This document shows positions 29,459-41,751 of a DNA stretch of 64,000 nucleotides, piece after piece. This DNA is from an uncultured Actinomycetota bacterium (GTDB lineage: Bacteria; Actinomycetota; Actinomycetes; JACCUZ01). The translations under genes and the position numbers were made by a program. The stretch is taken from the NCBI GenBank assembly GCA_963746465.1, contig CAVVAY010000004.1, forward strand, positions 43,382 to 107,381, read 5' to 3'. Within the stretch, counting starts at the first letter, position 1; each line of letters opens with the position of its first letter. A model generated the notes under the pieces. It had not been told where the DNA came from and did not search any database. It worked only from the letters and a program-made list of their open reading frames with translations.

Positions 29459-30028
29459 TCAGGTCAGCTCGGGCAGCACGGCGGCGCAGAACTCGTCGTC
29501 GGTGAACGACGGACCGTTCTCGGCGAGCACCTGGAACGTGTCGGGTACCGGCACGGCTCCGGGCTGGGAGTCACCGAGGGTGTCGAACTGCTCGCTCGCC
29601 TTGAAGACGCCGCTAGCGCGCAGCAGCAGGCGCCCCGTCGAGTCGTAGACCCGGAAGGTTCCCGCGTCGATGGACTGGAACTCCCAGATGTTGCCGGTGA
29701 TGTGAGTGGCCTTCTGCTCGTGGAAGGAGCCGTTGCCATGGGTGCGGATCCAGCCGTCCTCGGTAGAGATGATCTCGGTGAACTCGTAGTTGTCGAAGCC
29801 GAGGAAGGCCTGGCCGTCAGACCCCTTGACGGGCATGACCTTGGAGACCCCGCTGAAGGCGACCTCGACGTGCACTGGGATGCCGCAGAAGTCGGGCTCG
29901 TCATAGGAGTCCGTGCCGGCGTAGTGGGCGGCCTTGGCGACAGGCTTGCCGGCGTGGGCGGCCACCGGAGTCGCGAGCACGAGGGCCCCGGAGGCGAGAA
30001 CGGCGACGATGCGCGCGGTGCGGTTCAT
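29459..30028 (-). CDS. secreted protein of unknown function
   Basis: ATG 30028 with a signal peptide (MNRTARIVAVLASGALVLATPVAAHA). I recognise no motif. Confidence 0.6.
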   Translation of the reverse strand: MNRTARIVAVLASGALVLATPVAAHAGKPVAKAAHYAGTDSYDEPDFCGIPVHVEVAFSGVSKVMPVKGSDGQAFLGFDNYEFTEIISTEDGWIRTHGNGSFHEQKATHITGNIWEFQSIDAGTFRVYDSTGRLLLRASGVFKASEQFDTLGDSQPGAVPVPDTFQVLAENGPSFTDDEFCAAVLPELT

Positions 30029-30207
30029 CTGTACCCCCATGCAGGTGGCTGTGCAGGCCCCGGGACGTGTCCACGTTGCTCCTGCCGGGCGGGCGTCGCC
30101 ATGGCCACTACGGGCCATTTTTCGCCGCCGGTCCGCCCCAAGGAAGGACCGGACCCGGGAGGCTGTTGCAGTCGAGGGTCCGGTCCCCTGGCAGATGAGG
30201 TGATGCG

Positions 30208-31506
30208 ATGGCAGCGGCGATGGGCAGCGAGTCTGCCAAGGTCCAGCGCACCTACCTGACGCTGACGCTGTTCACCACGCTCTCGGCCTCGCTGATCTGG
30301 GGCATCAACACGCTGTTCCTGCTGGACGCCGGTCTGAACAACCTCGAGGCCTTCGCGGCCAACGCGTTCTTCACCGCCGGGATGATGCTGTTCGAGGTGC
30401 CCACCGGCGTGGTGGCCGACCTGCGCGGTCGTCGGTTCTCGTTCCTGCTCGGGTCGGTGACGCTGACCGCGTCGACGCTGGCCTACGTGCTGATGTGGCA
30501 GGTGAACGCGCCGTTCTGGGCGTGGGCGGCCGTGTCGGTGATGATCGGGCTCGGGTTCACCTTCTTCTCGGGGGCCGTCGAGGCCTGGCTGGTCGACGCG
30601 CTGCGTTTCACCGGGTACGACGGCCCGCTGGACCCGGTCTTCGCCAGGGGGCAGGCCGTGCAGGGCGGGGCCATGCTCACCGGCTCGGTGCTGGGTGGCG
30701 TCATCGCCCAGGCCACCAGCCTCGGCGTCCCGTTCGTGGTGCGCAGCGCGCTGCTCGGCGTGACCTTCGTGCTCGCCTTCGGAACGATGCACGACCTCGG
30801 CTTCACGCCCACGCGCGGCAAGCGACCCGGCCCTGAGGTGAAGCGGATCTTCAACGACTCGCTGCGGTACGGGCTCGGCCGCCCCTCGGTCCGGTGGGTG
30901 ATGCTCACGTCGCCGTTCGTCGGCGGTGTCAGCATCTACGCGTTCTACGCGATGCAGCCGTACCTTCTGGAGCTCTACGGGGACGAAGGGGCGTACGGGA
31001 TCGCCGGGCTGGCCGCAGCCATCGTCGCGGGTGCCCAGATCGTCGGTGGCTTGTCCGCACCACGGCTGCGCAGGCTGTTCCGTCGGCGTACCTCGTTGAT
31101 GATCACCTCGGCGACGGTCAGCGTCCTCGCACTGCTGCTCGTCAGCCTGATTGCGGTGTTCTGGGTGGTGGTCGGGCTGCTGGTCGTGTGGAGCCTCGCC
31201 TTCGCTGTCACGATGCCGGTGCGCCAGGCGTACCTCAACGACCAGATCCCGTCGCAGCAGCGGGCCACCGTGCTGTCGTTCGACTCGCTGCTCAGCTCGT
31301 CCGGCGGCGTGGTCGTGCAGCCTGCTTTCGGCCGGGTGGCCGACGTCGGCAGCTACGCGCTCACGTTCGGGCTCAGCGCCGCCGTGCAGGCCTGTGCGAT
31401 CCCGTTCCTCGTGCTGGCCCGGCGTACCGGCGTGACTGCAGACATCGTGGTCGGGCCGGCGGACGGGCTGCCGGTGCCGGCCTCGGCCGAGGAGGACACC
31501 GCATGA
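30208..31506 (+). CDS. MFS transporter
   Basis: 432 aa with about 12 hydrophobic segments and a DLRGRR loop after TM2. Confidence 0.85.
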   Translation: MAAAMGSESAKVQRTYLTLTLFTTLSASLIWGINTLFLLDAGLNNLEAFAANAFFTAGMMLFEVPTGVVADLRGRRFSFLLGSVTLTASTLAYVLMWQVNAPFWAWAAVSVMIGLGFTFFSGAVEAWLVDALRFTGYDGPLDPVFARGQAVQGGAMLTGSVLGGVIAQATSLGVPFVVRSALLGVTFVLAFGTMHDLGFTPTRGKRPGPEVKRIFNDSLRYGLGRPSVRWVMLTSPFVGGVSIYAFYAMQPYLLELYGDEGAYGIAGLAAAIVAGAQIVGGLSAPRLRRLFRRRTSLMITSATVSVLALLLVSLIAVFWVVVGLLVVWSLAFAVTMPVRQAYLNDQIPSQQRATVLSFDSLLSSSGGVVVQPAFGRVADVGSYALTFGLSAAVQACAIPFLVLARRTGVTADIVVGPADGLPVPASAEEDTA

Positions 31507-33507: not shown

Positions 33508-34032
33508 ATGACCGATGCCTCCCCGCTCGACGGCAAGCCGACCAGCGCCGCGCGCAGCACTCTCAGCCGGATCATGACCGTGCTCGACACCAACCTGTTG
33601 GGCACGGTGCACGGCGGCGTGGTGATGAAGCTGGTCGACGACGTGGCCGGCGTTGTCGCGCAGCGCCACTCGGGCGGCCCCGCCGTGACGGCGTCGATGG
33701 ACGAGATGGACTTCGTCGAGCCGGTGCGGGTCGGCGACCTGGTGCATGCCGAGGCGCAGGTCAACTGGTCCGGCACCACCTCGATGGAGGTGGGGGTCCG
33801 GGTGCTGGCGGAGCCGTGGGACCGGGCCGGCGTCCCGCCGACGCGGGTCGCCACGGCATACCTCGTGTTCGTCGCCGTCGACGAGAACGGGCAGCCGCGC
33901 GCGGTGCCGCCGGTGCAGCCGGAGACCGCCGAGGACCGACGGCGGTTCGCCGAGGCCGAGATCCGGCGGGCGCACCGGCTGGCCAGGCGGCAGGCGATCC
34001 AGCGTTCCCGGGACGAGACCGCGCAGCAGTGA
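33508..34032 (+). CDS. acyl-CoA thioesterase (hotdog fold)
   Basis: 174 aa with LGTVHGGVVMKLVDDVAG...ATAYLVFVAVD. Confidence 0.85.
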   Translation: MTDASPLDGKPTSAARSTLSRIMTVLDTNLLGTVHGGVVMKLVDDVAGVVAQRHSGGPAVTASMDEMDFVEPVRVGDLVHAEAQVNWSGTTSMEVGVRVLAEPWDRAGVPPTRVATAYLVFVAVDENGQPRAVPPVQPETAEDRRRFAEAEIRRAHRLARRQAIQRSRDETAQQ

Positions 34033-34045
34033 CGCTGCCGCGGCG

Positions 34046-36409
34046 TCAGGGCGCGGTGTCCGTCGCCGACGCCGCGGTGCCGGTCGGCTCGGAGGTCCCG
34101 GTGGGGGCCTCGGTCGTGCCGTTCCCGGTCGAGTCCGGCGACGAGGTCGCCTCGGGCGTGCTGGACGCCGACGGCTCGTCGCTCGGTGTCACCCCGCCAT
34201 CGGGCGTCGCGGACGGGTCGTCGCCCGGGGCGTCGGGCGGTGGGGAAGGTGTGGGTGTCTCGCCGGCCGACTCGGCCGTGACGATGTCCTTGATCTGCTG
34301 CTCGAAGCCTTCCAGCGTCGACTGGATCTGACCGACCGGCACGGTCCCGATGGTGCTGCCGAACTGCTGGATCTGCGCCCAGACCACCTCGATCGCCGCC
34401 ATCCCCGCATCGCTGAGCGGGCCGTCGAGGGTGAGGACGAGCTGCTTCGCGAGCGCGTAGGTCGCGCAGGCGAGACAGTTGTAGTTCACCGCCGCGGCGA
34501 GGTTCTGCGGGACCACGACGTCGGCCTGGCCGAGCACCAGGATCACCTGGAAGCCGATCGCGACCGCGGCGCAGCCGTTGCAGCTGGCGAACGCGTACGC
34601 CTCGTTGGCGTTGAGCACCTCGCCGTCGTCGGCCCAGACGAGCGCGAAGGCGACGTCGTAGCGGATCGAGCCGTCCTGGGTGTTGACGGCGAGCGCCTGG
34701 TTGTCGCCCTCGAGCGGGGCGTCCGGCTTGTTGAACGGGAACACCCAGGTCGGCGACTCGGGCGGCGCCTCCAGCGCGCCGGCCGCACCCTGCGGCGCGG
34801 CGTCGGCCGGCACCAGCACCATGGCCAGCTGCGGCTCGTCCTTCGGCGGCGGCTGCTCGTCGCTGGCCCACAGCGTCTGGGCGGCGCCGGTCTGGCCCTG
34901 CTTCAGCGACGGTGCGGCCGGTGCGGCGGAGTCGGAGGAGGTGGCCGGCCGCTGCAGCAGCGGGACCCGGTCGGCGACCGCGGCCGGAACCGCGTCGAGC
35001 AGGGTGCCCTGCTCGTTCGCCTGGATCGGCCGGTAGGTGCCCTCGTCCGGCCACCACACCCAGGCGAGGCCGGCCAGCAGCGCGACCGCCGTGGCGACGG
35101 CCACCGCCCGGCGGGCCGGCCGGCCCTCGGTCGAGCGGGCGACCGAGCGAACGGTCCGGCGCAGCACCCGGCCGAGCAGGTACACCATCGCCAGGATCGG
35201 CAGCGCCAGGGCGAAGATCGAGAGCATCCGCACGGCCACCTCGGCCGCGGCTCCCTCGGACCAGGCCTGGGTCAGCACGTCCCACTGGTTGCCGACGCTC
35301 TCCCACGCCGTCGCGGCGGCCCGGGGCAGCGCCACGACCATCAGCACCATGGACAGCAGGAGCACGGGCACGACCAGCAGCACCCAGACGGTGACGACCG
35401 CACGGGCCCACCAGGTCAGCGCCGACTCGGTGCGCCAGCGGTGCGGCAGCAGCCCGGCCAGCGTCGGCTTGATGTGCGAGTAGAGGTCGGGGACGCCGGT
35501 GAGGTCGGCGAGGATGTGGTAGCCGTCGAACCGGACGAACGGGGCCAGCTGCCGGACCATCTGCACGACCTGCGCCGCGATGATGAGCAGCAGCGCCTCC
35601 CAGCGGGTGACGGCCCACACCCCGAACATCGCGACCGCGAACAGCGCGTTGAAGTACAGCCCGCCGAGGTCGACACGGACCCGGCCCGCGCGGCCGAGCC
35701 GGTAGCTGTCGCCCACCTCGGTGTAGAAGGCCGGCCAGACCAGGTACATCCCGGCTCCCATGGCGCCGGGGGTCGCCCCGCCGTAGCGGCACGCGGCAGC
35801 ATGGCCGAACTCGTGGAAGCCGGCAGAGACGGCGGTCACCGCGAAGACCAGCAGGAACAGGCCGGGCGAGGTGAACGCGTCACGGGTGGCGGCGGCGAGC
35901 CCCTCGCGGAACAGGACCCACCCGGCGGCGGCCACGAAGGCCAGCGTGAACGGCACCACGACGAGCGGGTGGAAGAGGACGGCGAACGGCGCCGTGATCC
36001 GGCGGGTGATGGCCGGGTCGGTGACGACCTTCTTCAGCTTGACGGCCAGCAGCGGGTTGGGCTTGCTGACCTCCGGCTCGGAGCCGTCGGCGAGCACCAG
36101 CACGCCCAGTGGCCGCAGCTTGCTCTCGACGAGCGTGACGACCTGTTCGGCGCTCACCTCCCGGCCGAACGACTCGCTGACCGCGGCCGCGACCTCGTCG
36201 TAGCTGCGCTTGCCGTCGATCTGCTCGAGCACCGTGTAGAGCAGCGGGGTGAGCTGGACCGTCTGCCCGTCGGCCCGCCGCACCAGTGCCGGCGGCTTCT
36301 TGTAGCCGGACCCGGGGAGCTCGCCGATCAGCTCGACGCCAGCAGCCCGGGCGGGCACCTCCGCAGGGGAGGCTCCCGCCCGGGCCGGGGCGTCGGGCGT
36401 CGCGGTCAC
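34046..36409 (-). CDS. membrane M50/site-2-protease-like zinc metalloprotease with N-terminal PqqD/RRE-like segment and large extracytoplasmic C-terminal domain
   Basis: 787 aa. HEFGH lies at nt 35801-35815 and LAPFVRFDGYH at 35516-35530, both inside a hydrophobic core. Residues ~45-105 read QLTPLLYTVLEQIDGKRSYDEVAAAVSESFGREVSAEQVVTLVESKL. The C-terminal region has CNGC...CLAC and a Pro/Thr/Ser tail. Confidence 0.8.
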   Translation of the reverse strand: MTATPDAPARAGASPAEVPARAAGVELIGELPGSGYKKPPALVRRADGQTVQLTPLLYTVLEQIDGKRSYDEVAAAVSESFGREVSAEQVVTLVESKLRPLGVLVLADGSEPEVSKPNPLLAVKLKKVVTDPAITRRITAPFAVLFHPLVVVPFTLAFVAAAGWVLFREGLAAATRDAFTSPGLFLLVFAVTAVSAGFHEFGHAAACRYGGATPGAMGAGMYLVWPAFYTEVGDSYRLGRAGRVRVDLGGLYFNALFAVAMFGVWAVTRWEALLLIIAAQVVQMVRQLAPFVRFDGYHILADLTGVPDLYSHIKPTLAGLLPHRWRTESALTWWARAVVTVWVLLVVPVLLLSMVLMVVALPRAAATAWESVGNQWDVLTQAWSEGAAAEVAVRMLSIFALALPILAMVYLLGRVLRRTVRSVARSTEGRPARRAVAVATAVALLAGLAWVWWPDEGTYRPIQANEQGTLLDAVPAAVADRVPLLQRPATSSDSAAPAAPSLKQGQTGAAQTLWASDEQPPPKDEPQLAMVLVPADAAPQGAAGALEAPPESPTWVFPFNKPDAPLEGDNQALAVNTQDGSIRYDVAFALVWADDGEVLNANEAYAFASCNGCAAVAIGFQVILVLGQADVVVPQNLAAAVNYNCLACATYALAKQLVLTLDGPLSDAGMAAIEVVWAQIQQFGSTIGTVPVGQIQSTLEGFEQQIKDIVTAESAGETPTPSPPPDAPGDDPSATPDGGVTPSDEPSASSTPEATSSPDSTGNGTTEAPTGTSEPTGTAASATDTAP

Positions 36410-36420
36410 TGGTGGCGTGA

Positions 36421-37137
36421 CTACTGGGTGATGTCGGACTGCTGGTCGGTGTTGGCCTCAGCGGTGACGTCGTCCAGGTGCTGGTTGATGACGGCGTCCT
36501 GGTCGGCGACCGCCGTGGCCTCGGAGCCGATCGAGCCGACGTTGGCGGCCACGGCGGCATCGATCGGGGCAGCCACGTTGGCGTTGGCGGCCACCGCACC
36601 GGCGATCGGCGCGGCGATGTCCGCGTCCAGCGCGGCATTCACGTCCACGTTGAGCAGGTCGCCGTCGAGCAGCGAGCCGGGGTCGGCCGTCACGCCGGCA
36701 GCGGCGTCGGTCGGCGTGCTGCCGTCGGCCGGGGTCGGGGCAGTCGTGCCGTCGGCCGCGGGGCCGGTGGTGCCGTCGGCCGGCGCCGCACCGGTGCCGT
36801 CGTCGACGACGTCGTTGCCCTGGTCGAGGGTGCTGTCCTGGGCGCTGTTGGCGACGGCCTCGCCGCTGATGCCCTGGTCGATGGCGACGTCCTGGCTGGC
36901 GAGACCCTGGGCGACCGAGCCGGCGGAGAGCACGTTGGCCGACACAGCGGCGTCGATCGGGGCAGCCACGTTCGCGTTGGCCGCCACGGCGAGGTCGATC
37001 GGCGCTGCCAGGTCGAGGGCGAGATCGAGGTCGACGTTCAGGTCCAGCAGCGAGATCACTTCCTTGGGCGGAAGGGCGCTGCCGGCCTCGGCGGCCAGCT
37101 CGTCGTCCGACAGGGGTGTCTGGTCGTTCGCGGTCAT
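36421..37137 (-). CDS. highly acidic, internally duplicated repeat protein (AAPIDAAVAANANVAAPI motif) of unknown function
   Basis: 238 aa from ATG 37137. SD GGGAGG lies 8 nt upstream. The stop is 11 nt before the M50-like gene start. There are two ~60-aa repeats and a Thr/Pro/Ala/Asp/Gly linker. An alternative GTG start exists at 37155. Confidence 0.75.
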   Translation of the reverse strand: MTANDQTPLSDDELAAEAGSALPPKEVISLLDLNVDLDLALDLAAPIDLAVAANANVAAPIDAAVSANVLSAGSVAQGLASQDVAIDQGISGEAVANSAQDSTLDQGNDVVDDGTGAAPADGTTGPAADGTTAPTPADGSTPTDAAAGVTADPGSLLDGDLLNVDVNAALDADIAAPIAGAVAANANVAAPIDAAVAANVGSIGSEATAVADQDAVINQHLDDVTAEANTDQQSDITQ

Positions 37138-37145
37138 GAGCCGTA

Positions 37146-37151
37146 CCTCCC
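37146..37151 (-). promoter_or_regulatory. Shine-Dalgarno GGGAGG of the acidic repeat-protein gene
   Basis: The reverse complement of 37135-37155 reads gtgcGGGAGGtacggctcATG. Confidence 0.7.
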
Positions 37152-37277
37152 GCACGCTGCGCGTGCACTCTGGGCGCGCCGGAGGAAGAAGTCCCCCCGA
37201 CCGACGCGTCGGCGACGGTGGCGCCGCCCGGTCGATGTCTCGCGAACGGCTTGCCCGGACCGGACCAGGCGGAAACG

Positions 37278-38792
37278 TCAGCTGCAGACGTGATCACTCG
37301 CGGTGCGTACGCCCGTGTCGGACGGTGCTGGCCCCGTCACCCGCACGGCCCGCGCCCCGTCGTACGACGTGCCGACCACCACCTGCATGGTGCGGCCCAG
37401 CCCGGCCACCGCCTGCAACCGGGCACCGGGCAGCGCCGCAGCGACCGTCTTGATGCTCTCGGTGTAGCGGGTGTCGAACCGCACCGTGGTGCGCTCCACC
37501 CCCGTGCGGCTCCAGTTCTGCGCCGGGCCCGCGGTCTCGAACCCGCGGGCGGCCAGGTCGGCGGTCGCCAGCGAGCCGAGCCCGGGCGTGCCGGCGCCGT
37601 TGTAGACCTGCAGCCGGATCTGCGCGGGCAGCACCGTTGGCCGGCCGGTCCCGGCGCCGCCATCGCGGCGGTGCGGGCGGGCACTGTCCTCTCGCATCGC
37701 GGTGAACACCTGGGCGGCCGCGGCCTCGTCCCACAGGGCGACCGAGCCGGCCGAGGCGGTGCGGTGCGACGGGTCGGCCACCGGCACGGTGCGGAACCGG
37801 ATGTCGCTCCCCGACACGTGCCGCAGTCGAGTGCCCAGCCGCACCAGCTCCTCCTCGGTCAGCCCCGGGTCGGCCCGGACGGCGGCCAGCGCGGCGTCCA
37901 GGAAGCGCACCAGGGCCCTCGGGTCCAGCAGGACGTCGCGGCTGGTGGCCCGGTCGACCATCGCGGCCAGGAACCGTTGCTGCCGCTCGACCCGACCCAG
38001 GTCGGCGCGGGCGTCGAGATGGCGGGCCCGGACGTAGGCCAGGCCGGTCTCGCCGTCGACGTGACTGACCCCGGCCGGCAGCCGCAGGCCGGCCTTGCGG
38101 TCCCGCATCCGGACCGGGCTGCAGACGTCGACTCCGCCGACGGCGTCGACCAGGCGGACGAAGCCGAGGAAGTCGACCTCGAGGTAGTGGTCGATCCGGA
38201 CACCGGTGCTGCGCTCGACGGTGGCGACCGCGAGGGACGGTCCGCCGAAGGCGTACGCCGCGTTCAGCTTGTTGCGCCGCTCCGGCACCCGGTCCCCGTC
38301 GGACGACACGTGCTCCGGGATGGTGACGTAGGAGTCGCGCGGGAGGCTGACAGCGTCGACCGTGCCGTGCCGGGCCGAGATGTGCACCAGCAGCATCGTG
38401 TCGGCCCGGCGCCCGGCGGCGGTGGCCGCGTCGCCGACATGGAGGCGCTTCATGTCGGCGCTGCTCATCCCGGTGCGGCCGTCCGAGCCCACCAGCAGGA
38501 AGGTGGTCGAGCCGGCGGCGTTGGCCGGCGGCCGGTCGGTGACGCCGGCGAAGGCGTCGACCCGCTCGATGGACCGGCTGGACCAGGTGAGCAGGGTGTA
38601 CCCCGAGGCGCTGACCATAAGGACGGCCAGCGCGGCCACGGCCGCCGTCGCGACCAGCAGCCGGCGCAGGATGCGGCTGATCCGGGTGGGTGGCCGGCGT
38701 CCGGTGCGCGGGCCCGGACGAGACCTGCCCGCACGGCCGCGGGGGTCGAGCTGCGGCGGCAGCGGGGGGTGGACGCCGGACGGCGAGGACAT
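37278..38792 (-). CDS. LCP family ligase with C-terminal LytR_C-like domain
   Basis: 504 aa with one TM helix and motifs LLVGSDGR, RADTMLLV, SLPRDSYV and KLNAAYAFGG. The C-terminal ~90 aa read QIRLQVYNGAGTPGLG... Confidence 0.9.
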   Translation of the reverse strand: MSSPSGVHPPLPPQLDPRGRAGRSRPGPRTGRRPPTRISRILRRLLVATAAVAALAVLMVSASGYTLLTWSSRSIERVDAFAGVTDRPPANAAGSTTFLLVGSDGRTGMSSADMKRLHVGDAATAAGRRADTMLLVHISARHGTVDAVSLPRDSYVTIPEHVSSDGDRVPERRNKLNAAYAFGGPSLAVATVERSTGVRIDHYLEVDFLGFVRLVDAVGGVDVCSPVRMRDRKAGLRLPAGVSHVDGETGLAYVRARHLDARADLGRVERQQRFLAAMVDRATSRDVLLDPRALVRFLDAALAAVRADPGLTEEELVRLGTRLRHVSGSDIRFRTVPVADPSHRTASAGSVALWDEAAAAQVFTAMREDSARPHRRDGGAGTGRPTVLPAQIRLQVYNGAGTPGLGSLATADLAARGFETAGPAQNWSRTGVERTTVRFDTRYTESIKTVAAALPGARLQAVAGLGRTMQVVVGTSYDGARAVRVTGPAPSDTGVRTASDHVCS

Positions 38793-38879
38793 GCGGGGGA
38801 CCTTCCGGCGCAGGAGTGACCGTCGCTGGCGATGCTAGGTGCGTTACCGCCTTACGCCGGTCAGGCACGCCGGTAGCGT

Positions 38880-39920
38880 GTGGGCGCCATGGCCGCCCCC
38901 GAACCCGTCCCCGATCCCACCGCTGCGCCTCCGGCCGACATCGCCGGCTGGCCCGGCGTCTCGGTCGTCGTCCCGGTGCTCGACGAGGAGCACCACCTGC
39001 GGGCCGCCGTGTCGACCGTGCTCGGCCAGGACTACGCGGGCCCGGTCGAGGTCGTGCTGGCCCTGGGGCCGTCCCGGGACCGCACCGACGAGATAGCCGC
39101 GGAGCTGGCCGCCGCCGACCGCCGGGTGCGGCTGGTGCCGAACCCGACCGGCGCCACCGGCGCCGGCCTGAACCGGGCGGTGGCCGCGGCCCGGTACGAC
39201 GTCGTCGTCCGGCTGGACGGGCATGCGCTCGTCCCCGACGACTACCTGCGGATCGCGGTCGAGACGCTGCAGCGCACCGGGGCCGACAACGTCGGTGGGC
39301 TGATGTCGGCCGAGGGGGTCACCGACTTCCAGCGAGCCGTCGCGGCCGCGATGACCAGCCCGATCGGGGTCGGGCAGGCCAGCTTCCACGTCGGCGGCGA
39401 GGAAGGACCGGCGCTGACGGTCTACCTGGGCGCGTTCCGCCGCGAGGTGCTCGAGCGGCTCGGAGGGTACGACGAGACCTTCCTGCGGGCCCAGGACTGG
39501 GAGCTCAACCACCGGATCCGGGAGAGTGGGGGGGTCGTGTGGTTCACCCCGCGCCTCACCGTGTCCTACCGCCCGCGTTCCGACCTGCGTGCGCTGGCCC
39601 GGCAGTACCGCGACTACGGCCGGTGGCGCCGGGTGGTCATGCGCGAGCACGAGGGGACCGCGAGCCTGCGCTACCTCGCACCGCCGGCCGCGGTCGTGGC
39701 CGTCTCGGCCGGCACGGTCGTCGGGCTGACGTGGTGGCGGCCGGCGCTGCTCGCGCCGGTGGGCTACGCCGCCGCGGTGCTGGCCGGGTCGGCGGTCGTC
39801 GGCCGCGGCCTGCCGCCCCGCTCGCGGGCCTGGCTGCCCGTCGTCCTCGCGACCATGCACGGAGCGTGGGGGGTCGGGTTCCTCACCAGCCCGCGGAGGC
39901 TGCGCAGCGCGGGACGGTAG
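38880..39920 (+). CDS. family 2 glycosyltransferase with C-terminal membrane segments
   Basis: 346 aa with VSVVVPVLDEEHHL, ..VVRLDGHA.. and ..AQDWELNHR.. An alternative ATG start exists at 38889. Confidence 0.85.
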   Translation: MGAMAAPEPVPDPTAAPPADIAGWPGVSVVVPVLDEEHHLRAAVSTVLGQDYAGPVEVVLALGPSRDRTDEIAAELAAADRRVRLVPNPTGATGAGLNRAVAAARYDVVVRLDGHALVPDDYLRIAVETLQRTGADNVGGLMSAEGVTDFQRAVAAAMTSPIGVGQASFHVGGEEGPALTVYLGAFRREVLERLGGYDETFLRAQDWELNHRIRESGGVVWFTPRLTVSYRPRSDLRALARQYRDYGRWRRVVMREHEGTASLRYLAPPAAVVAVSAGTVVGLTWWRPALLAPVGYAAAVLAGSAVVGRGLPPRSRAWLPVVLATMHGAWGVGFLTSPRRLRSAGR

Positions 39921-39961
39921 CGTCCACCGTTGCGTGCACGTCGACCAAGGGAGCACCACAG

Positions 39962-40705
39962 ATGATCGGCATGGTGCTGGCGGCTGGAGCCGGCCGGCGG
40001 CTGCGGCCCTACACGGACACCCTGCCGAAGGCTCTGGTGCCGGTCGACGGTGCGACGACGATCCTCGACATCGCGCTGCGCAACCTCGCGGCGGTCGGTC
40101 TGACCGACGTCGCGGTGGTCGTGGGCTACCGCGCCGAGGCCGTCGAGGAACGGCAGGCCGCCCTCGAGGAGCGGCACGGCGTCCGGCTCACCCTGGTGCA
40201 CAACGACAAGGCCGAGGAGTGGAACAACTGCTATTCGCTGTGGCTCGCGCGTGACCACTTCGCTGACGGCGCGCTGCTGGTGAACGGGGACACGGTGCAC
40301 CCGGTGGACGTCGAGCGCACCCTGCTCGCCGCCCGCGAGCAGGACGGTGCCGCCGGCATCCTGCTCGCGCTGGACGACCAGAAGTCGCTGGCCGAGGAGG
40401 AGATGAAGGTCGTGCTCGACGCGTCCGGCCGGATGAGCCGGATCACCAAGCTGATGGACCCGGCCGAGGCCGCAGGGGAGTACATCGGTGCGACGCTGAT
40501 CGAGGGCCGCGCGGCCGGTGCGCTGGCCGACGCCCTCAAGGCCACCTGGGAGCGCGACCCCGACCTCTACTACGAGGACGGCTACCAGACGCTGGTGGAC
40601 ACCGGCGGCGAGGTCGGAGTCGCGCCGATCGGGACGCTGCCGTGGGTCGAGGTCGACAACCACGACGACCTCGTCAAGGCTCGGGAGATCGCGTGCCACT
40701 ACTAG
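39962..40705 (+). CDS. sugar/alcohol-phosphate cytidylyltransferase (NTP_transf_3, LicC-like)
   Basis: 247 aa with the nucleotide-binding loop MVLAAGAGRRLRPYT..PKALV. Confidence 0.8.
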   Translation: MIGMVLAAGAGRRLRPYTDTLPKALVPVDGATTILDIALRNLAAVGLTDVAVVVGYRAEAVEERQAALEERHGVRLTLVHNDKAEEWNNCYSLWLARDHFADGALLVNGDTVHPVDVERTLLAAREQDGAAGILLALDDQKSLAEEEMKVVLDASGRMSRITKLMDPAEAAGEYIGATLIEGRAAGALADALKATWERDPDLYYEDGYQTLVDTGGEVGVAPIGTLPWVEVDNHDDLVKAREIACHY

Positions 40706-40710
40706 CCCGG

Positions 40711-41751
40711 ATGCTGCTCAGCCCGCTGTTCATCGACATCCGCGCGGGCGCGGTGACGGGGCTGGGCGACCTGCTGTCCGACCGGCGGATCTCCGCCGAC
40801 GGGCACGTCGCAGTGGCGGTCGGACCGGGGCAGGGCGAGAGCGTCGTCGAGGCGATCCGGCCGTCGCTGGCCAACGCTGACGTCTTCACCGTCCGCGGCG
40901 GCAGCCTGGAGGCCGCCGGCGAGCTGCAGACCGAGATCCGGGGCAAGAGCTACGACGCCCTGGTCGGCATCGGCGGCGGCCGGACGCTGGACGTCGCGAA
41001 GTACGCCGCCATGCGGCTCGGACTGCCGATGGTGGCTGTCGCGACCAACCTCGCGCACGACGGCATCGCCTCGCCGGTGAGCTCGTTGCTGCACGAGGGT
41101 GGCAAGGGGTCCTTCGGTGTCGTCCCACCGGTGGCAGTGGTCGTCGACCTCGACTACGTGCGCACCTCGCCGCCGCAGATGGTGCTGTCCGGGGTGGGTG
41201 ACCTGGTCAGCAACATCACCGCCTGCGAGGACTGGCGACTGGCGTCCCGCGAGCGAGGTGAGCCGGTCGACGGGCTGGCGGTGACGTTCGCCCGTACTGC
41301 CGCCGAGGCCGTGCTGCACCGCACCGACGGCATCGAGTCGGACGGGTTCCTCACCGCGCTGGCGGAGGGGCTCGTGCTCTCCGGCATGGCGATGACCGCC
41401 GCCGGCGACAGCCGCCCGAGCAGCGGCGCCGACCACGAGATCATGCACGCGGTGGACCAGCTCTTCCCGGGCACCGCCACCCACGGCGAGCTGGCCGGCG
41501 TGGGTGCCCTCTTCTCGGCGTACATCCGGAAGAACGAGCGGCTTGCCGAGCAGATCGACCGCTGCCTGAGCCGGCACGAGCTGCCGCGTGTTCCTGCCGA
41601 CCTCGGCCTGACGACCGCGCAGTTCGCCGAGGCCGTCGTGCTGGCACCGAGCACCCGCCCGGACCGGTACACCATCCTCGAGCACCTCGACCTCGACGAG
41701 ACAGCGGTGCGCGCGCGGGTCGACGCCTACATCGGCGCGTACGGCGGGTGA
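40711..41751 (+). CDS. iron-containing alcohol dehydrogenase family protein, glycerol-1-phosphate dehydrogenase-like
   Basis: 346 aa with GIGGGRTLDVAKY, ..NLAHDGIASP.. and GADHEIMHAV (putative metal ligands). Confidence 0.75.
   Translation: MLLSPLFIDIRAGAVTGLGDLLSDRRISADGHVAVAVGPGQGESVVEAIRPSLANADVFTVRGGSLEAAGELQTEIRGKSYDALVGIGGGRTLDVAKYAAMRLGLPMVAVATNLAHDGIASPVSSLLHEGGKGSFGVVPPVAVVVDLDYVRTSPPQMVLSGVGDLVSNITACEDWRLASRERGEPVDGLAVTFARTAAEAVLHRTDGIESDGFLTALAEGLVLSGMAMTAAGDSRPSSGADHEIMHAVDQLFPGTATHGELAGVGALFSAYIRKNERLAEQIDRCLSRHELPRVPADLGLTTAQFAEAVVLAPSTRPDRYTILEHLDLDETAVRARVDAYIGAYGG

Follow-up and report, generated by a model that had tools for sequence, protein, structure and literature searches.

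To our knowledge, the recognition elements of peptides that are made by ribosomes and modified after translation (RiPP recognition elements, RREs) have so far been known only from peptide natural-product pathways, and site-2 proteases (S2Ps) fused to an RRE only as enzymes that remove the leaders of small modified peptides, for example daptides. The daptide paper describes the peptidase MpaP as an intramembrane S2P with an RRE domain fused to its N-terminus, which removes the leader. Two further S2P systems offer precedents of other kinds: in SpoIVFB, a linker and β-sheet augmentation position soluble pro-σK, an example of an S2P that cuts a non-membrane pro-protein, and in RseP-type S2Ps, extracytoplasmic PDZ domains control substrate access (PMC9401612). 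In this report, we analyze a pair of genes in a window of 64,000 nucleotides (nt) from an uncultured Actinomycetota bacterium (GenBank assembly GCA_963746465.1, contig CAVVAY010000004.1, positions 43,382 to 107,381 of the forward strand), one of which encodes a membrane metalloprotease with a predicted RRE and the other an extremely acidic protein with a leader-like N-terminus. These two genes form a self-contained unit in the chromosomal core, not in a biosynthetic island, and the unit is widespread in Actinomycetota; here, the same RRE-S2P machinery carries a large conserved outside domain and is tied, near-invariably and across several actinobacterial classes, to a protein of more than 200 residues without linked tailoring genes.

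Both genes lie on the minus strand. The gene for the putative acidic pro-protein (36421-37137; 238 amino acids (aa); stop codon 36421-36423) starts with ATG, and the protease gene (34046-36409; 787 aa) starts with GTG and begins 11 nt past that stop codon. In a mechanical list of open reading frames (ORFs), the acidic ORF was six codons longer, with a GTG as its start (244 aa); we prefer the ATG because the alignments of homologues and a GGGAGG Shine-Dalgarno (SD) sequence 8 nt ahead of it both support this start. An earlier model-made description of the locus (hereafter the original prediction) had listed the gene pair and its SD, the composition of the acidic protein and its lack of a signal peptide, and the HEFGH, P-x3-FDG and CxxC motifs and the tail of the protease, and we recovered every one of these from the sequence.

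A genome scan with the protease family gave 80 loci, from Arthrobacter, Pseudarthrobacter, Pedococcus, Phycicoccus, Sinomonas, Nocardioides, Kribbella, Mycolicibacterium, Mycobacterium, Planosporangium, Plantactinospora, Saccharothrix, Actinokineospora and Blastococcus as well as Nitriliruptorales and Microthrixaceae. In 79 of these loci, the acidic gene stands immediately upstream of the protease gene in the same orientation, and the last locus has only 44 nt upstream, too little to hold it. The reverse test, which started from the acidic protein, gave 80 metagenome loci, 42 of which extend for at least ~640 nt downstream; the exact coding pattern GFHEFGHA occurs ~620 nt past the acidic gene in 37 of these 42, and variant motifs (GWHEFGH, AFHELGH and, twice, AFHEIGH) bring the total to 41. 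The sole informative metagenome locus without a protease motif after the acidic gene is L158, where the next ORF (1108-1650; 180 aa) combines LDQVL-type coiled-coil repeats with an N-terminus like that of a signal peptide; this contig may be chimeric. Clustering of the neighboring ORFs yielded no third conserved gene, no other ORF family being present in more than 14 of the 80 neighborhoods. Because the pairing is near-universal while no other neighbor is conserved, we conclude that the unit consists of two genes.

We regard the N-terminal domain of the protease (residues ~20-110; 36080-36352, minus strand) as RRE/PqqD-like because three independent lines support this predicted, cytoplasmic fold, which would bind a leader. 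First, the NCBIfam model daptide_HExxH (NF041824) matches residues 40-322, including the RRE part, with 95.3 bits and E = 4e-27, against an equivalog cut-off of 300. Second, AlphaFold2, with 120 sequences and a mean predicted local distance difference test score (pLDDT) of 71.8 for the whole protease, places three strands (residues 26-30, 41-44 and 50-53) ahead of three helices (55-63, 70-81 and 87-98), the pLDDT being ~84-96 over residues 41-110. Third, the best domain-sized Foldseek match of the full-length model is PqqD (5sxy; probability 0.97, TM-score 0.63), and the lasso-peptide RRE TbiB1 in its leader complex is matched as well (5v1u_B; probability 0.75). When the first 130 residues were searched alone, weak hidden Markov model (HMM) matches below the cut-offs were obtained to the ApyI RiPP-binding protein (E = 0.0047), PQQ_PqqD (E = 0.025) and PqqD (E = 0.032), and the only unrelated match, Pfam ORF_12_N, was weaker (E = 0.12). 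Residues Q49, Q52, L53 and T54 of the predicted β3 strand vary little or not at all, and neither does the interdomain linker; strand and linker rank with the best-conserved regions of the protease.

The predicted seven-helix membrane core (residues ~141-453; 35051-35989, minus strand; AlphaFold2 helices) carries the catalytic motifs. HEFGH (residues 199-203; 35801-35815) lies within predicted helix 182-209 and is invariant in 120 homologues, and a re-entrant hairpin (residues 217-230) follows this helix in the AlphaFold2 model. The second S2P motif, which in this protease class provides the Asp that binds zinc, is Q287-LA-P290-FVRF-D295-G296 (35522-35551); it has invariant Q287, P290, D295 and G296 and thus reads QxxPxxxxDG, starting with Gln where the S2P motif NxxPxxxxDG has Asn. 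The loop charges fit an N-in/C-out arrangement at every loop by the positive-inside rule, loop 414-434 holding eight Arg, and we therefore take the RRE to be cytoplasmic and residues 454-787 to lie outside. This predicted outside part, ~330 aa in total, consists of a four-Cys domain (residues 454-714; 34268-35050, minus strand) and a Pro/Thr/Ser-rich C-terminal tail (residues 715-787; 34049-34267, minus strand), the latter variable among homologues. The domain is highly conserved, with an invariant WVFPF, four Cys in two CxxC motifs (C610-NG-C613 and C645-LA-C648) and many further invariant columns; it is poorly modeled by AlphaFold2 and has no match in Pfam, NCBIfam or the PDB.

Judged from its sequence, the acidic ORF is a genuine and strongly constrained gene. 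It is more than a chance reading frame because it has more than 3700 homologues (identities up to 89-91%, lengths very similar) and because all 14 consecutive substitutions in columns 93-195 of the DNA alignment with the closest relative (L001) fall at codon position 3. When 1.84 billion cluster representatives were searched with a profile, 518 clusters came up, all apparently of this one family; at 50% identity, the family comprises no fewer than 518 clusters. The 238 residues include 57 Ala, 33 Asp and 6 Glu (39 acidic residues) with 1 Lys and 1 His, and hold no Arg, Cys, Phe, Tyr or Trp; inspection of the sequence revealed no hydrophobic N-terminus or signal peptide. The protein is an internal duplication of an ~85-aa domain, residues ~26-106 and ~153-238 being 58% identical, with a repeat of 177 nt (72% identity) beneath them at the DNA level. 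Copy 1 (residues 26-106; 36820-37062, minus strand) begins with an alternating hydrophobic/acidic stretch, in which residues 27-71 read Leu, Val, Ile or Ala at every odd position and Asp, Asn, Ala or Pro at the even ones, and continues into a Gln-ladder β-hairpin. Copy 2 (residues 153-238; 36424-36681, minus strand) ends in an invariant Gln. Regularly spaced invariant Gln residues mark the second half of both copies, and AlphaFold2 predicts long β-hairpins at residues 75-105 and 206-237 (pLDDT 65-75).

Between the copies lies a Pro/Thr/Gly/Asp linker (residues 107-152; 36682-36819, minus strand) that varies in length and sequence among homologues and in some of them is expanded with GNxxGTLD repeats. 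Two long variants, P0248 (583 aa) and P0257 (438 aa), have the linker exchanged for many GN(I/L)xGTLDxxTGxV-like repeats; P0257 also bears an acidic C-terminal extension, and in P0248 the last ~100 residues seem to stem from a frameshift that carries the reading on into the protease gene. Comparison of the acidic protein with Pfam, NCBIfam and PADLOC gave no match, Foldseek with its low-confidence model gave none either, and profile searches of PDB sequences with the acidic and protease families returned nothing meaningful. As far as their sequences can be placed, the acidic protein and the outside domain of the protease belong to no described family. Some submitters have named the acidic protein 'peptidoglycan-binding protein', a name for which we found no supporting Pfam or NCBIfam model; RefSeq now mostly lists both it and the protease as 'hypothetical'.

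The N-terminus of the acidic protein is its most informative part. The family consensus reads PLSxDELAAExG(S/T)ALPxKEVxSxLDL, and across 120 sequences and a deliberately divergent set L9, L14, A16, E17, A21, L22, P23, K25, E26, V27, S29, D32 and L33 show no or almost no variation. Alignment conservation divides this region into a leader-like segment, PLSxDELAAExG(S/T)ALP (residues 1-24; 37066-37137, minus strand), and the block LPxKEVxSxLDL (residues 22-33; 37039-37074, minus strand), the proposed region of cleavage, in which the invariant K25 is the only Lys of the whole protein. The motif ELAAE..ALP is similar to the daptide leader ELExMEAP. Thus, three points of the original prediction have fared well: a leader-like N-terminus is present as a conserved motif with daptide resemblance, an RRE-like fold is indicated jointly by AlphaFold2 topology, Foldseek and daptide-model homology, and the two genes are kept together in the genome and metagenome loci alike; the original prediction had named the absence of either the fold or the joint conservation as grounds for its refutation. 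A divergent sub-branch was also seen: in L096, L118 and L159, AFHE(I/L)GHA replaces GFHEFGHA ~620 nt downstream of the acidic gene, and in the acidic partners the leader is shifted (LSREELELEGGQLLPNKEV) and Phe or Tyr occurs. On these sequences, leader and protease seem to diverge together.

How, then, does the pair compare with the described systems? The protease shares with MpaP an N-terminal RRE and an HExxH membrane protease, the similarity being significant over both parts, and the resemblance extends to an adjacent substrate gene (MpaA), an acidic leader motif ending in Pro and a mainly actinobacterial distribution. In contrast to MpaP, it has the additional ~330-aa extracytoplasmic part, and whereas daptide precursors are 2-10 short hydrophobic peptides ending in Thr, the partner here is a two-domain acidic protein of 210-260 aa ending in Gln. 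Moreover, none of the daptide enzymes MpaB, MpaC, MpaD and MpaM, nor the ATP-binding cassette (ABC) transporter, is conserved beside the pair in the 80 loci, and the same is true, there and in three annotated contexts (Arthrobacter, Micromonospora and Pedococcus), of the companion DUF-RRE protein, Fe-ADH decarboxylase, aminotransferase and methyltransferase and of tailoring enzymes and transporters at large. The Fe-ADH_2 gene of the window (40642-41751) belongs to a lineage-specific glycopolymer cluster and not to the pair. Membership of the daptide systems was therefore rejected on score, precursor type and missing enzymes.

Similarly, YydH/LiaK (NF058609) has a homologous HExxH membrane protease core, but only this catalytic core is matched (residues 193-306), with 40.6 bits and E = 2e-10 against an equivalog cut-off of 225; this model and daptide_HExxH were each matched by all 18 of 18 diverse members of the protease family. 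IMG names the family 'putative peptide zinc metalloprotease protein', which we take to be the KEGG name for yydH. The yyd operon also encodes a short precursor, an ABC exporter and a radical-SAM epimerase, the last of which the epipeptide system needs. A radical-SAM Pfam domain was found in none of the three annotated contexts, nor does a conserved neighbor family exist in the 80 loci, and an epipeptide assignment fails on the same three grounds of score, precursor type and missing enzymes. With SpoIVFB and pro-σK the likeness is one of proposed action, namely an S2P with a cytoplasmic accessory domain that trims a short N-terminal pro-sequence from a soluble protein; it differs in that the accessory domain of SpoIVFB is a CBS domain and not an RRE, that its substrate is a sigma factor, that it is regulated by BofA and SpoIVFA, and that no sequence relationship is detectable beyond the S2P motifs. 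RseP resembles the protease in having an S2P core with a sizeable outside domain, but here that domain is at the C-terminus, has no relation to PDZ and falls in no known family, and the presumed substrate comes from the cytoplasm and has no transmembrane segment. Full-text literature searches found no published description of the pair, although the library searched was incomplete and one may exist elsewhere.

From these features we lean, at slightly better than even chances, towards a mechanism in which the RRE guides removal of a leader from an acidic pro-protein at the cytoplasmic face of the membrane, without RiPP tailoring. We infer its course, from binding through cleavage and its site to gating and the role of the mature protein, as follows. 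The acidic protein would be synthesized as a cytoplasmic pro-protein, and its LSxDELAAE motif would be bound by the cytoplasmic RRE domain of the protease; the LPxKEVxSxLDL block, with its helix-breaking Pro, would then be fed as an extended strand into the HEFGH/QxxPxxxxDG site, which would be open to the cytoplasm. Cutting of the ~25-residue leader near the invariant Pro23/Lys25 would release a two-domain, strongly amphipathic and β-rich acidic protein. By analogy with other S2P accessory domains, the four-Cys outside domain and the Pro/Thr tail would most likely gate or localize cleavage in response to an envelope signal. It is our guess that the mature protein self-assembles at the membrane or another interface. 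A wider proposal, possible but rather doubtful, is that the RRE serves the regulated maturation of a full-size protein: an envelope-sensing S2P would free a cytoplasmic, Lys- and Arg-free amphipathic β-protein from its leader, and this protein would build a membrane-associated or otherwise exported acidic layer, as a hitherto unrecognized, vertically inherited pathway of Actinomycetota. The high conservation of the RRE β3 strand and the interdomain linker is in keeping with RRE-guided leader removal, as is the use of a linker and β-sheet augmentation by SpoIVFB. If cleavage does take place, RRE-guided recognition would extend from natural-product chemistry to protein maturation or signaling, and two large families of hypothetical proteins, with thousands of sequences each, would gain a function.

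Several observations weigh against this mechanism. The acidic partner is ~10 times larger than the known substrates of RRE-S2P peptidases, and the LPxKEV region is not hydrophobic at the proposed cleavage site. The AlphaFold2 model of the acidic protein is of low confidence (mean pLDDT 54). The Pfam M50 model PF02163 reaches only 12.6 bits against its gathering threshold of 27.2; to judge by the family models, the protease is a divergent S2P branch that the NCBIfam RiPP-protease models recognize better. In addition, the composition of the acidic protein, with no basic or aromatic residues and a Pro/Thr/Gly linker, is more like that of an exported or surface protein, and despite this likeness the protein has no export signal and the loci hold no conserved transporter nearby.

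Four other explanations were considered. In the first, which we hold to be unlikely, the acidic protein is a stable partner (an inhibitor, adaptor or regulator of the BofA/SpoIVFA kind) that docks on the RRE, while the protease cuts another, unlinked substrate, such as a membrane-bound regulator. The tight pairing and a conserved N-terminal docking motif would suit a binding partner equally well, but the described RRE-bearing relatives all use the RRE to bind the very peptide that is cut, and the invariant block after the leader stands at the spacing from the recognition motif that is expected of a cleavage site. Control of S2Ps by partner proteins is established (PMC9042235 and PMC6242693) and gives this explanation a precedent, to which the large extracytoplasmic domain, suggestive of a signaling protease, may be added; however, no conserved gene for a candidate substrate or regulator lies nearby in the 80 loci.

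The surface-like features of the acidic protein lead to a second, likewise improbable explanation, which is compatible with cleavage: the mature protein would be an extracellular or wall structural protein (an amphipathic β-sheet or amyloid-like layer, or a wall polyanion) exported by an unrecognized route, and the outside domain and Pro/Thr tail of the protease would receive or anchor it. Its lack of basic, aromatic and Cys residues, its Pro/Thr/Gly/Asp linker and its alternating strands and Gln ladders do recall surface-active and fiber proteins, and the ladders seem to resemble curli repeats. The acidic protein does not qualify as a secreted functional amyloid of the curli or chaplin type, as it has no signal peptide and no Pfam match. 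Nor does it show a Sec or Tat signal, a motif of the type VII secretion system or a conserved transporter, and we know of no S2P that translocates proteins. The submitters' name cited above points to the wall, but has no support from Pfam or NCBIfam HMMs, and RefSeq now mostly uses 'hypothetical' instead. A further argument is the envelope context, which consists of two LytR-CpsA-Psr (LCP) genes and a GT2 gene in this lineage and of class A penicillin-binding protein (PBP) and TatA genes in Arthrobacter. This context is not conserved: beyond the seven closest relatives (L001-L006 and L008), LCP flanks are absent and the pair stands among housekeeping genes. A role at the wall-polymer interface, which had been deduced from these flanks, is weakly founded because they are lineage-specific.

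A true RiPP system, in which the acidic protein is a precursor with cores modified by enzymes encoded elsewhere and yields small-peptide products, would account for the RRE domain, the leader-like motif and the homology to RiPP leader peptidases, but we consider it very unlikely. Across the 80 loci, neither a modifying enzyme nor a second RRE protein nor an ABC exporter is conserved beside the pair, in line with the original prediction that this is no classical RiPP cluster; the acidic protein has no Cys, lacks the invariant C-terminal Thr of daptides and is conserved over its whole length, unlike the typical hypervariable cores; and the pair sits among housekeeping genes, its neighbors being cytochrome oxidase, trpD and cysteine desulfurase genes in Micromonospora and ispH, xseAB and ychF in Pedococcus. 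A RiPP gene cluster in general was rejected, since only the protease is linked to the precursor-like gene and no modification enzyme is. That the two genes are merely co-transcribed neighbors with no direct functional link is scarcely credible, given that their adjacency has been kept across several actinobacterial orders and classes while other neighbors change and that the 11-nt spacing suggests coupled translation.

Upstream of the acidic gene, the SD (GGGAGG, 37146-37151, minus strand) is preceded by a hairpin with a 6-bp stem, GCACGC-TGC-GCGTGC (37152-37166). Its arms, GCACGC and GCGTGC, are kept with differing loops in L001, L002, L004 and L005; L003 has them slightly changed, and L006 and L008, which are more distant relatives, lack them. 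Such a hairpin adjoining the SD could occlude or present it. The hairpin and a 12-nt palindrome, CCGACGCGTCGG (37201-37212), had both been noted before and are indeed present, although the palindrome is not conserved as such in the relatives. Folding of the whole 5' leader RNA is on a par with that of shuffled sequence (z = -0.02), and scans for Rfam families and for promoter and terminator consensus sequences found none.

The position of the pair between two LCP genes stands in part. Pfam LytR_cpsA_psr confirms the two LCP genes (E = 4e-47 and 3e-42), but on the downstream side a gene for a 174-aa 4HBT (hotdog) thioesterase (33508-34032, plus strand) intervenes between the protease and LCP genes, convergent to the protease gene and with 13 nt between the two stop codons. 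In Pedococcus, too, a thioesterase gene follows that of the protease, but it is of another family (4HBT_3). In Arthrobacter and Pseudarthrobacter, as in Arthrobacter sp. SLBN-83 (L081, 2603-4813), the pair lies downstream of genes for a class A PBP, DUF2127, TatA and a Na/Ca exchanger; in 14 of the 80 loci, an ORF family of ~740 aa recurs upstream that matches the class A PBP by size and position only. The regions around the pair in the window (30208-31506 and 37278-41751) resemble a cell-wall glycopolymer cluster and contain the two LCP ligases, the GT2 glycosyltransferase (38880-39920), the Fe-ADH_2 dehydrogenase and a major facilitator superfamily transporter. A candidate nucleotidyltransferase gene lies at ~39950-40705, and a 219-aa ORF without a Pfam match (29459-30118, minus strand) carries a signal-peptide-like N-terminus.

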